Assembly: GCA_043815885.1 (NCBI GenBank)
Contig: JBDRIL010000031.1
Location: 1-40,009, forward strand
Direction of reading: 5' to 3'
Length of the DNA: 40,009 bases
Source: an archaeon
GTDB taxonomy: Archaea; Iainarchaeota; Iainarchaeia; Iainarchaeales; 1-14-0-10-31-34
The notes under the pieces were generated by a model that saw only the letters and a program-made list of their open reading frames with translations, was not told the origin of the DNA and did no database searches. Made by a program: the position numbers and the translations under genes. Each line of letters begins with the position of its first letter. The stretch's first letter is position 1. Positions 1-39,066 of this stretch are shown here, piece by piece.

Positions 1-651
1 CCTGGAAAGGGATGGATTGGAATTGATTCAACCTACAGAGAGGCATTGTATGTGGATGGAACGCATTTGGTTTTGGCTTATGTAAAGGATCCATCAGAGG
101 CAGTGGAAAAAGTAATAATGCCTGAAAGAATTAAGGTTGAATTAATAAGGCAAGAGCCAGAAATTGAAATAAATTCTAGAAAAGAATTCAGCGGAATCAC
201 TGGAATTAAAGCAATTATTCCTGAAAAGCTTTCTTCCGGAGAAGCATTTGAATTAGGGATTAAAGCAGAAAATTTAACTGAAAGATACGTGATTCTTCCT
301 GTTTCCCTTCAAATGCATGAAGATTTTTCAGTGGAAGGAGAAAATGAATTACTGGAATTGTTTTCTCCTGGAGAGAAAAAGGAATTTAATTGGAGTGTTA
401 GTGTTCCTTCAGTGAAGGAGGGAAGCAAGGTAACCTATGACTTCTTTGTTAAGACAATTGATGAAACAAGGAAGGAAAAGATTGCTGTAGAGAATGCATT
501 TGAAGAGGAAAGGAAAGTTGTTTCAGAAGAAGAGAAAGAAAAGCCATTAATGGATTTAATTGGAGAGGAAATTGACTTCATTCCTGCCTTGATTTTGCTG
601 GGTTTTGTTGCAGTGGTTTTATTGGTTGTTTTCCTTAAAACAAAAAAGTAA
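1..651 (+). CDS. 3' part of a membrane-anchored protein, probably a transglutaminase-like domain followed by an Ig-like domain and C-terminal TM anchor (5' end outside window)
   Basis: Frame is open from base 1 (PGKGWIGIDSTY..., resembling the GWxxxDxT end of transglutaminase cores); beta-rich middle; hydrophobic C-terminal helix followed by KTKK. Confidence 0.6.
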   Translation, partial: PGKGWIGIDSTYREALYVDGTHLVLAYVKDPSEAVEKVIMPERIKVELIRQEPEIEINSRKEFSGITGIKAIIPEKLSSGEAFELGIKAENLTERYVILPVSLQMHEDFSVEGENELLELFSPGEKKEFNWSVSVPSVKEGSKVTYDFFVKTIDETRKEKIAVENAFEEERKVVSEEEKEKPLMDLIGEEIDFIPALILLGFVAVVLLVVFLKTKK

Positions 652-682
652 TTAAATTCTTTGATTCAAGAGATATTCTTAG

Positions 683-825
683 GCGGCTATGGTCTATTGG
701 CATGATTCGACCTTGCCAAAAAACTTTTAAAAAAAGTTTTATCAAAAGTCGGCAAAAAAACTTTTAAAAAGATTTTCATGAAATGCAATGAGGTCGCGAA
801 CCGGGTTCGATTCCCGGTAGCCGCA
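683..825 (+). tRNA. tRNA-Gly(GCC) with 72-nt intron at canonical 37/38 (719-790)
   Basis: Acceptor GCGGCTA/TAGCCGC, anticodon stem CGACC/GGTCG, GCC at 715-717, T-arm CCGGG-TTCGATT-CCCGG; BHB with central helix TTGC/GCAA and bulges CA|A and TG|A. Confidence 0.95.
718..783 (+). repeat. Two tandem copies of the CTTTT-NNN-AAAAG hairpin repeat inside the tRNA-Gly(GCC) intron
   Basis: AAAAAACTTTT-AAA-AAAAGTTTTATCAAAA (718-747) matches intergenic copies at 29146 and 35339; degenerate second copy at 754-783. Confidence 0.8.
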
Positions 826-1659: not shown

Positions 1660-1787
1660 GCGTTCGTGGTCTAGTGGTTAGGACATGAGCCTTCCACTGG
1701 TGAAAGTTTGCAAAAAACACTCAATGTTCTAGTGATCTTTTACTAGAGAGATAGCTCATTACCCGGGTTCGAATCCCGGCGAGCGCA
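1660..1787 (+). tRNA. tRNA-Gly(TCC) with 56-nt intron at 37/38 (1697-1752)
   Basis: Acceptor GCGTTCG/CGAGCGC, anticodon stem TGAGC/GCTCA, TCC at 1693-1695, T-arm CCGGG-TTCGAAT-CCCGG; intron ends pair (CTGGTGAAAG/CTTTTACTAG); relaxed BHB/BHL junction. Confidence 0.93.
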
Positions 1788-2683: not shown

Positions 2684-2800
2684 GGGCCCGTAGCTCAGTC
2701 GGTAGAGGAAAGGAAATTATAGATTTTTATGATACTCCTTTTCGCCGTAAGCACTTGGCTCTTAACCAAGGGGTCGGGGGTTCGATTCCCCTCGGGCTCG
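2684..2800 (+). tRNA. tRNA-Lys(CTT) with 44-nt non-canonical D-arm intron at 22/23 (2706-2749)
   Basis: Acceptor GGGCCCG/CGGGCTC, anticodon arm CTTGG-CTCTTAA-CCAAG, T-loop TTCGATT; removing 2706-2749 restores D stem GCTC/GAGC; BHB helix CGGT/GCCG with bulges AG|A and TA|A. Confidence 0.93.
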
Positions 2801-29145: not shown

Positions 29146-29203
29146 AAAAAAAACTTTTCTCAAAAGTTTTATCAAAAAACATTGTATGCCTCCGGTATAC
29201 AAT
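29146..29203 (+). repeat. Double-hairpin repeat (type 1) between atpA and atpB
   Basis: AAAACTTTT-CTC-AAAAGTTTTATCAAAAAAC followed by ATTGTATGCC-TCC-GGTATACAAT. Confidence 0.85.
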
Positions 29204-29208
29204 AAAAA

Positions 29209-35102: not shown

Positions 35103-35314
35103 AATGATTTCCGCACCAAAAAAACAAAAAAATCGTTATTTGACGCAATATATCCAATGAATTATGTGAATAAAAAGTATTTAAACATTTTCTTTAGGGG
35201 AAGGGATTTAATTAATTATAGATACAATTATTAGGGTAATTTTTTATCTTTTTGGTTTGGATTAGCTTTAAATAATTAATTGAATGGAAGGATAATAGGG
35301 AGTTTAGTTTTTTT

Positions 35315-35369
35315 ACTGTATACCGGAGGTATACTGTATTTTGATAAAACTTTTCGGAAAAGTTTTTTT
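35315..35369 (-). repeat. Double-hairpin repeat (type 1), inverted orientation
   Basis: GTATACC-GGA-GGTATAC then TTTTGATAAAACTTTT-CGG-AAAAGTTTTTTT; reverse complement aligns with 29146-29203. Confidence 0.85.
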
Positions 35370-38732: not shown

Positions 38733-38784
38733 AAAATAGTTGATTCATTTATTATTTAATTACTTTCCCTTCACTATTATTACT

Positions 38785-39057
38785 GTGGGCTAGGTTGGAG
38801 TGTCAGCGGTACTCTGTTGCCTGAAATCCGCTTTATGCAGGAACCGAAGCCTTTGAAGGCGAGTTCATTTCTTGGAAGAGAATCCTTATTCAATCTATGA
38901 ACTTTCGTCCCGAAGATTAGGCTTTAAAGCCAATCCGCCAGGTTCGGAAGAAAGCAACGGTAACTCTATTGCTTAATGCTTTTGGGATTCACGGAAGGAA
39001 GAAAGAGTAAGGGCAATTCTTTTTCAGGAATTGAATTCCACTTTAAGGCGCGCCCAC
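38785..39057 (+). ncRNA. ffs: Signal recognition particle (SRP/7S) RNA, ~273 nt
   Basis: Terminal helix GTGGGC/GCCCAC; Alu domain with AGCGG/CCGCT loop-loop complementarity; helix 8 CCGCCAGGTTCGGAAGAAAGCAACGG; AT-rich promoter upstream and T-tract downstream. Confidence 0.93.
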
Positions 39058-39066
39058 ACTTTTTTT

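Follow-up and report, generated by a model that had tools for sequence, protein, structure and literature searches.

The tRNA-Gly(GCC) gene and its intron

The window, that is the whole stretch of 40,009 nucleotides analysed here (contig JBDRIL010000031.1 of assembly GCA_043815885.1, from an archaeon of the Iainarchaeales), carries near its beginning a tRNA-Gly(GCC) gene with a 72-nt intron, most of which is made up of two copies of a hairpin-plus-tail module that is also dispersed over the genome. The gene occupies positions 683-825 of the plus strand and was recognised by ARAGORN with its intron option, which places the intron at 719-790 in the anticodon loop (position 37/38) and gives a normal cloverleaf with an acceptor stem of 7 bp, an anticodon stem of 5 bp and the loop TTGCCAA. 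Run on positions 600-900, the Rfam tRNA model recognises the gene at 41.1 bits (E 1.3e-7; threshold 29) and aligns it with 74 inserted nucleotides in the anticodon loop; the gene is missed by ARAGORN in its default mode and by the Rfam run over the whole window.

Throughout the text G000 is the genome of this stretch (assembly of 1.16 Mb in 62 contigs, 36.8% G+C, 91.7% complete), C-numbers are its contigs, other G-numbers are relatives and L-numbers are loci fetched from elsewhere. Forty-three tRNA genes were predicted in G000, 20 of them with introns, and Gly(GCC) is represented once, so that the gene is presumably essential and its intron must be removed. Removal would proceed by protein splicing, with an EndA endonuclease and a ligase acting on a relaxed bulge-helix-bulge motif. 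At least four other tRNA genes of G000 are preceded, at a distance of 23-26 nt, by boxes of the types TTAAATTC and TTTAATTC, which are similar to the one upstream of this gene. The features of the locus and the two complete elements of the window, the latter given with the neighbouring open reading frames (ORFs), are as follows.

649..660, plus strand: promoter-like box GTAATTAAATTC, 23 nt upstream of tRNA-Gly(GCC), a putative assignment made by reading the letters
683..718, plus strand: 5' exon, tRNA positions 1-37 (ARAGORN with introns; Rfam 41.1 bits)
719..790, plus strand: 72-nt intron at the canonical position 37/38 (ARAGORN, Rfam)
720..747, plus strand: module copy 1, with stem 720-728/732-740, loop 729-731 and tail ATCAAAA at 741-747, equal to the family consensus with 0 mismatches
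748..753, plus strand: linker GTCGGC between the copies, whose similarity to the second hairpin of the dispersed element is not significant
755..783, plus strand: module copy 2, decayed, 25/29 identical to 718-746 without gaps, a score reached by 0/2000 shuffles
785..788, plus strand: GCAA, pairing with TTGC at 713-716 (tRNA positions 32-35) as the central 4-bp splice helix, read by hand, all pairs standard
791..825, plus strand: 3' exon, tRNA positions 38-73 (ARAGORN, Rfam)
29146..29208, plus strand: full two-hairpin element (module 29150-29177 and second hairpin), antisense to both neighbouring ORFs
35308..35369, minus strand: full two-hairpin element (module 35339-35366), between divergent ORFs

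The module and the dispersed element

The module is a sharply bounded 28-mer composed of AAAACTTTT, any three bases, AAAAGTTTT and ATCAAAA, which form a 9-bp stem, a 3-nt loop and a tail. The original prediction, made from the letters of the window, had noticed that 718-747 is identical to 29148-29177 except for the 3-nt loop; the identity extends to all 27/27 non-loop positions, both for 29148-29177 (+) and for 35339-35368 (-), and with up to 3 mismatches allowed, a match turned up in 0/100 dinucleotide-shuffled versions of the window. Copy 1 is moreover identical at 28/28 positions to C33:15462-15489. The decayed tandem copy that had been described behind it is likewise there, at 755-783. 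The further claim that the intron is built almost entirely from two copies of the repeat is right in quantity, since the two module copies amount to about 58 of the 72 bases and leave the linker GTCGGC and the 3' end 784-790, but what is present is only the first module (28-30 nt) of an element of about 62 nt. The remainder of the intron has no resemblance to the second hairpin of that element (240/2000 shuffles score as well).

G000 contains 18 copies of the module, all with 0 mismatches over the 25 specified bases. In 15 of the 18 the module is followed by an A-run and by a second hairpin, the loop of which is of the TTCG type, so that the usual form of the repeat is a two-hairpin element of about 62 nt, whose second hairpin shows paired changes (GTATGCC...GGCATAC versus GTATACC...GGTATAC). 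Sixteen copies have two neighbouring genes, and on crude ORF calls eight of these are co-directional with both, four are antisense to both, three lie between divergent and one between convergent genes; three copies are found at contig ends. A reading of the module as an archaeal promoter (TFB recognition element and TATA box) was considered and rejected, because the orientation relative to ORFs is mixed and because the box 23-26 nt upstream of the tRNA genes is of the different TTAAATTC type.

The two-hairpin element tolerates and colonises other 'harmless' places, such as the N-termini of four ORFs (on C1, C36, C58 and C60), where it is read in frame. These ORFs, each with a Shine-Dalgarno-like box, start just upstream of the element and read it in one and the same frame as the N-terminal extension ..KKLLxKVLSKKHCIPSVYNKK.. 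(C60:5626-5661, C58:4074-4121, C36:1235-1310 and C1:9080-9133). In C60 the element inserts 19 codons between MNKK and the conserved motif GVFTFTCCEGC, and the insertion sits between two AAAAAC runs. The homologues in G001, G002, G005 and G007 have M-x-K-K joined directly to this motif; as they are merely 33-41% identical, the orthology of the empty sites is not certain. In G003 (L338) two modules are found in frame at the site matching the C60 insertion. At C26:40486 the element makes its own ORF of 25 codons just upstream of the next gene.

Splice motif and endonuclease

At the junctions the 5' bulge is composed of C717, A718 and A719, with the splice site after A718, and the 3' bulge of T789, G790 and A791, with the splice site after G790; both measure 3 nt and correspond to the standard 37/38 geometry. 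A helix of 4 bp separates the two, and the anticodon stem serves as inner helix. In the outer helix h' (720 onward against 784 backward) only a single A-U pair, 720/784, can form, which falls short of a strict hBHBh' motif, and the 9-bp module hairpin 720-728/732-740 follows directly after the 5' bulge, starting at intron base 2. With a local hairpin in the place of h', the splice motif is a relaxed one. The original prediction had called the motif intact, which is true of the central helix and of both bulges and fails for the outer helix. When the cloverleaf stems and the central helix are forced and the bulges are kept unpaired, the fold has an energy of -37.2 against a free minimum of -39.5 kcal/mol, a cost of 2.3, and shows the module hairpin next to the 5' bulge. 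Compared with canonical archaeal hBHBh' tRNA introns at 37/38, the intron is alike in position, in the two 3-nt bulges four bp apart and in the presence of an encoded EndA gene, and differs in that the local hairpin from intron base 2 replaces the outer helix.

A local hairpin instead of a closing helix is the rule in G000, where it is found in 11 of the 15 canonical introns of at least 35 nt. Nine of these open with a local hairpin at intron bases 1-3, two with a local hairpin are classed as 'other' by the cut-offs, and the remaining four have a closing helix. The EndA gene of G000 was identified as the single match to PF01974, on C32; it encodes 170 amino acids with both the N and the C domain (Pfam) and aligns over its full length with the 171-aa enzyme of M. 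jannaschii (chain 1a79). In PMC5829648, alpha4-type EndAs with an L3 loop in DPANN lineages are described as accompanying increased disruption of tRNA genes.

The module at tRNA genes of relatives

Among the sampled genomes of the order the module was found, at up to one mismatch, in 24/151. It is present in 9/9 genomes of the family, with the highest copy number in G000, and in 15 genomes from 10 other families of the order with 1-4 copies each. The reversed pattern, used as a control, gave 0 matches in all 151 genomes against 80 forward or reverse-complement matches of the module.

The 30 loci returned for the module pattern hold 31 copies, of which four open an intron, namely in tRNA-Leu(TAA) of G005 and of G007, tRNA-Leu(CAA) of G018 and tRNA-Asn of G001. 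Two abut a tRNA 5' end in reversed orientation (Gly-CCC in G008 and Lys-CTT in G130), and two lie less than about 40 nt from the 3' end of a tRNA; the share of tRNA genes in genomes of this kind is well below 1%. The fetched loci contain 60 distinct tRNA genes, a biased sample in that loci were chosen for the module or as Gly and Asn orthologues. These genes gave 12 module matches at up to 2 substitutions, eight of them in seven introns. All 8/8 intron matches run forward, and the first in each of the seven introns lies 0-2 nt from the 5' boundary set by ARAGORN; the other four are two reversed copies ending at the tRNA 5' end, one forward copy in the trailer, one base after the tRNA, and one copy in a gene mis-parsed by ARAGORN. 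In introns with several modules the copy nearest to the 5' splice site is usually the closest to the consensus (Gly in G000, Leu in G005, Asn in G008 and Leu in G018), Gly-CCC of G004 being the exception. Subtypes of the module keep the stem by two-sided changes (AAAAC/GTTTT, CAACC/GGTTG, GCAAC/GTTGC) and also keep the tail xCAAAA. The similarity covers the interior module only; the 3' ends of the introns vary with the tRNA, and each pairs with its own anticodon loop.

Turnover of orthologous introns

All five tRNA-Gly(GCC) genes found in the family have an intron at 37/38 that opens with a hairpin-plus-tail module, the subtype of which differs and the number of which varies from one to three. 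Besides the 72-nt intron of G000 these are an 84-nt intron in G001, an 85-nt intron in G004, one of about 146 nt in G007 (read by eye, the gene being mislabelled by ARAGORN) and one of 172 nt with three tandem modules in G008; with the queries used the gene was not found in G002, G003, G005 and G006. The introns of genus g2 have the CC/GG stem subtype with the tail ACCAAAA or AACAAAA, and the consensus subtype is present in this intron in G000 only, though the g2 genomes hold consensus copies elsewhere. Since all five introns open with a module of varied subtype, the intron probably predates the G000 lineage, and its filling has changed. A comparison with relatives for intron-less or repeat-less alleles had been proposed with the original prediction, and none came to light within the family: in other families the introns of G022 and G020 are filled with other hairpins, and intron-less genes are confined to the more distant genomes G024, G018 and G016.

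The alleles of tRNA-Asn(GTT) show that intron content turns over fast within one genus. In genus g2 the gene has no intron in G006 and G007, an intron of 43 nt in G001 (AC, module and 13 nt), of 68 nt in G008 (AC, module, a second module with compensated stem and 10 nt), of 114 nt with other content in G004 and of 132 nt in G005, where it belongs to a polypurine hairpin family and the exons are identical to those of the intron-less G006 and G007. The Asn intron of G000 (79 nt) belongs to the polypurine family and has the ends AC...GCAGCA in common with G001, which is the clearest sign that intron ends persist while the interior is exchanged. Gly(CCC) of the same genus carries two modules in G004, a third family in G005 and G008, and no intron in G006, the exons of which are almost identical to those of G005.

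In run X1 a contig of 189 nt looks like tRNA-Gly(GCC) with a one-module intron (one low-depth contig, possibly from another organism). Two further single low-depth contigs of this run, weak as evidence and possibly also from other organisms, are an intron-less relative with 5 other letters in 36 and a 67-nt contig with an intact second unit. A metagenome scan with a 16-base exon pattern returned noise; among its 80 loci L110 alone is a tRNA-Gly(GCC), with a 42-nt intron and a different opening hairpin.

Other repeat-filled introns and tRNA flanks in G000

By BLAST, 8/15 of the G000 introns of at least 35 nt match elsewhere in the genome, and the Gly(GCC) intron is thus one instance of a genome-wide habit. 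Its module is peculiar to it: the other tRNA introns of G000, in which the original prediction had suggested looking for the repeat, do not carry it, and all 12/12 BLAST matches of the Gly(GCC) intron are outside tRNA genes. The Cys intron has five matches and the Gly-CCC intron matches tRNA flanks, while the introns of Asn, Glu, Asp, Ser-GCT and C29:17774 have matches among themselves and in the flanks of tRNA-Pro genes and belong to a separate hairpin family. The first 41 nt of the tRNA-Cys intron (C61:16718-16889) are identical to C14:4898-4938, which ARAGORN does not call a tRNA.

Many tRNA genes of G000 (on C18, C19, C20, C21, C26, C45, C61, C62 and others) are flanked by other hairpin repeat families, which end exactly at the mature 5' end (..AAACCG-loop-CGGTTT directly before the first G) or start right after the 3' end; inverted copies of these families open introns such as those of Gly-CCC and Cys. 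A hairpin beside the exon with its tail pointing away seems to be the general rule.

The window holds three further RNA genes. At 1660-1787 (+) a tRNA-Gly(TCC) has an intron of 56-58 nt at 37/38, which folds with a closing helix and, unlike the Gly(GCC) intron, has no BLAST match elsewhere in G000. At 2684-2800 (+) a tRNA with the anticodon loop CTCTTAA is aligned by Rfam with a 45-nt insert in the D loop and looks like a tRNA-Lys(CTT) with a non-canonical D-loop intron; the ARAGORN parse differs (Lys-TTT, 24-nt intron). The archaeal signal recognition particle RNA is found at 38783-39059 (+) with 135.5 bits (Rfam).

Distribution across archaea and beyond

An exact-match scan of one genome per prokaryotic species returned at least 118 stretches, 80 of which were listed with record titles. 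Among the listed matches are metagenome-assembled genomes (MAGs) labelled Iainarchaeum/Diapherotrites, Micrarchaeota and Nanoarchaeota/Pacearchaeota/Woesearchaeota, as well as Methanophagales, Methanosarcinales, Syntrophoarchaeum, Methanomicrobia, Halobacteriota, Methanobacteriota, Thermoplasmata and Thaumarchaeota MAGs, labels which may include binning contamination. Five listed stretches are in three bacterial MAGs (L223, L275, L277, L280, L286), three of them in one Oscillospiraceae MAG, and in viral contigs there is one exact match (L213, 166 kb, 22% G+C); these bacterial and viral copies could be contamination, chance or real spread. In named MAGs among the matches listed, with flanks read by eye, the module opens introns of Lys-CTT, Thr-CGT and other tRNAs, and in one case it is found in the D loop.

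In genomes of the methane-oxidiser type the module is followed by ACGCTTCGCAG, often inside the loop of another hairpin-plus-tail element. Among these and related archaea, inverted repeats of at least 8 nt flank 11/100 copies against 5/1000 control positions in the same loci. The nested copies belong to few composite families and may therefore be few events copied many times. One composite repeat, CCTTTCTTT ... AAAGAAAG plus TTTACCAAAG with the module and ACGCTTCGCAG in its loop, is common to different MAGs of Methanosarcinales, Methanophagales and Syntrophoarchaeum type (L216, L230, L231, L242, L244, L257, L260, L273 and L279). An Rfam search over 20 loci with conserved contexts round the module in other archaea gave one tRNA only. 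At L072 (G033) the module and a short GC hairpin are flanked by a 17-nt direct repeat, ACGAATTTGCGGTCCAC, an arrangement suggestive of target duplication or of insertion within an existing repeat.

Interpretation

We favour, at a probability of roughly 0.55, the colonisation of an older intron in an essential tRNA gene by a duplicative hairpin element, with the first hairpin of this element taking the place of the outer helix h'. The intron would be older than its present filling, the module having entered or replaced the interior of an existing intron and then having either duplicated in tandem or inserted again beside an earlier copy, now decayed. The module would multiply as DNA, both in this lineage and in many other archaea. 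It would persist because everything between the splice sites is discarded, and the 5'-most hairpin would be kept for its place beside the 5' bulge, at which h' is lacking; immediately behind this bulge a stable hairpin may be able to substitute for the absent helix. The original prediction had taken intron interiors to be tolerant, a premise that fits, but something beyond passive tolerance is suggested by the way in which the module keeps to one place and one orientation at the 5' splice site. It had also named the right alternatives, an existing intron used as a site or an intron created by the insertion, and we lean to the existing intron on account of the five family Gly(GCC) introns (5/5) and of the shared Asn ends AC...GCAGCA, although creation keeps support.

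Several observations weigh against this reading. The order of events in Gly(GCC) is drawn from other genera and from tRNA-Asn, with none of the compared genomes coming from the genus of G000 itself. As the seven module introns include two orthologous pairs, the 8/8 orientation comes down to about five independent cases in a module-selected sample. Identity of the module across phyla and the perfection of 18/18 copies in G000 are unusual for a decaying selfish repeat and could point to selection for function. Substitution of h' by a non-contiguous hairpin was not found demonstrated for any EndA in the literature examined. No mobilising enzyme was found either: the Y1 transposase family PF01797 has 0 matches in G000 (91.7% complete), and across the order Y1 is not associated with the module, being present in 7/24 module genomes and in 36/127 others.

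If instead the insertion of the module created the intron, the module would target A-rich loops such as the anticodon loop at 37/38 and survive where its flanks form or evolve a bulge-helix-bulge. We consider this improbable, though several observations speak for it: tRNA-Asn and tRNA-Gly(CCC) have intron-less and intron-bearing alleles with identical or near-identical exons in one genus, some introns barely exceed one module (43 nt in Asn of G001, 41 nt in a tRNA-Thr of the Micrarchaeia), the module begins 0-2 nt from the splice site, and the 189-nt contig of run X1, a weak point as it is one contig, is like a one-module Gly(GCC) intron. Insertion into loops is further suggested by the modules in the loop of another hairpin element with their inverted repeats (11/100 versus 5/1000 controls) and by the in-frame insertion of C60 between two AAAAAC runs. 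Yet every family member of Gly(GCC) found has an intron already, the minimal introns keep, outside the module, a further 6-13 bases at their 3' end, which pair with the anticodon loop, the nested copies fall in few composite families that may represent few events copied often, and intron loss explains the intron-less alleles equally well as long as the tree is unrooted. Somewhat less probable again is that the module is a functional cis-element, read as RNA or DNA by a conserved archaeal protein and selected, which would serve tRNA processing instead of being selfish DNA. Such a role would account for the invariance of the 25 specified bases over several phyla beside a freely variable 3-nt loop, for the 18/18 perfect copies of G000, for the subtypes that keep stem and xCAAAA tail, and for the fixed place and orientation at the 5' splice site, together with the reversed copies that end exactly at the mature tRNA 5' end and the one forward copy in a trailer. 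It is difficult to reconcile with the patchy occurrence (127/151 genomes of the order are without the module), with both orientations relative to genes (8, 4, 3 and 1 of 16), with copies in frame inside coding regions, with orthologous introns that work with other fillings or genes that do with no intron, and with the difference between the module and the box upstream of the G000 tRNA genes.

The original prediction had also proposed the excised intron circle as a form of dispersal, the dispersed copies then being derived from the circularised intron through an RNA intermediate. Circular tRNA introns are well documented in other archaea (PMC12558985), but nothing at this locus supports such a route and we regard it as very unlikely: the 5' flanks of the 17 dispersed copies are unlike the circle junction 790/719 (467/2000 shuffles score as well), none of the dispersed copies has intron-specific parts, these copies carry a second hairpin where the intron has none, and the module occurs commonly in intron-free genomes and contexts. 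Chance similarity in A+T-rich, low-complexity sequence, which might suggest itself for a motif that consists of runs of A and T, the genome having 36.8% G+C, is refuted by the controls (0/100 window shuffles, 0 versus 80 matches with the reversed pattern in 151 genomes and 0/2000 for copy 2) and has a negligible probability.

As to the way in which the module moves, it has no terminal inverted repeats of the kind seen in miniature inverted-repeat transposable elements beyond its own hairpin, and the A-runs that flank the insertions could be microhomology or duplication; their presence at both module ends and at the insertion sites suggests microhomology. Three TnpB-type genes (PF07282) are present in G000 (C38:17467-17664, C11:11385-11582 and C2:375-572), and were considered as a source of the module; the two full TnpB copies share only 1319 bp of the ORF region. 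A more far-reaching and speculative proposal, which we put forward as doubtful, is that the module is a protein-independent or trans-mobilised mobile unit across archaeal phyla, which would insert in A-rich hairpin loops (including the anticodon and D loops of tRNAs), so seed new endonuclease-spliced introns and bring its own helix beside the 5' splice site.

Relation to known repeats and introns

Two kinds of known repeat invite comparison. Repetitive extragenic palindromic (REP) elements, which go with REP-associated tyrosine transposases (RAYT) or IS200-IS605 Y1 transposases, consist of a short hairpin with a conserved flanking oligonucleotide, occur in many copies, often tandem or nested, and can sit at gene ends. 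The module has these traits in common with them, being a multicopy hairpin with a conserved flanking oligonucleotide (9-bp stem, ATCAAAA tail, 18 copies); it differs by the lack of a Y1 gene in G000 and of an association with Y1, by its copy number of at most 18 and by its occurrence also in tRNA introns and coding regions. Rickettsia palindromic elements are palindromic repeats tolerated in frame in protein-coding genes, with no known mobilising enzyme. The module element is tolerated in the same manner, and is distinguished by being much shorter (28 or about 62 nt), archaeal and multi-phylum and by supplying tRNA intron sequence.

A comparison can also be made with the transposed tRNA introns of the Thermoproteales (Fujishima et al. 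2010, as related in PMC4090602 and 10.64898/2026.10.13.758758), in which related introns are found in different isoacceptors; according to these two sources the introns are probably gained as DNA, with the bulge-helix-bulge requirement acting as a filter. The recurrence of related intron sequence across tRNAs is common to both cases, being true of the module across relatives and of another family within G000. The differences are that a 28-nt interior module is shared here, not a whole intron with its junctions, and that the module has many copies elsewhere than in tRNA genes (intergenic, in frame within genes and abutting tRNA ends), is spread over several phyla and has a DPANN host with an alpha-type EndA. 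A literature search, which did not cover subscription journals, found no description of the module or of dispersed repeats inside archaeal tRNA introns, no paper with the module motif string, and none in which the content of tRNA introns is linked with a hairpin family dispersed both between and within genes.

The module family would be a concrete source of sequence for the filling of archaeal tRNA introns and bears on how archaeal tRNA genes gain introns. The locus and its relatives offer a defined donor family, alleles within one genus that range from none to one, two and three modules, and a fixed geometry at the 5' splice site. That a 28-nt motif is identical from DPANN to methane-oxidising archaea means either that a conserved machinery copies the module or that the module moves between very distant hosts. 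A preprint of 2026 on Asgard archaea (10.64898/2026.10.13.758758) found no general arrival route for tRNA introns; if the tentative proposal of a mobile, loop-inserting module is true, such a module would supply the 'arrival route' that is missing for the tRNA introns of archaea.

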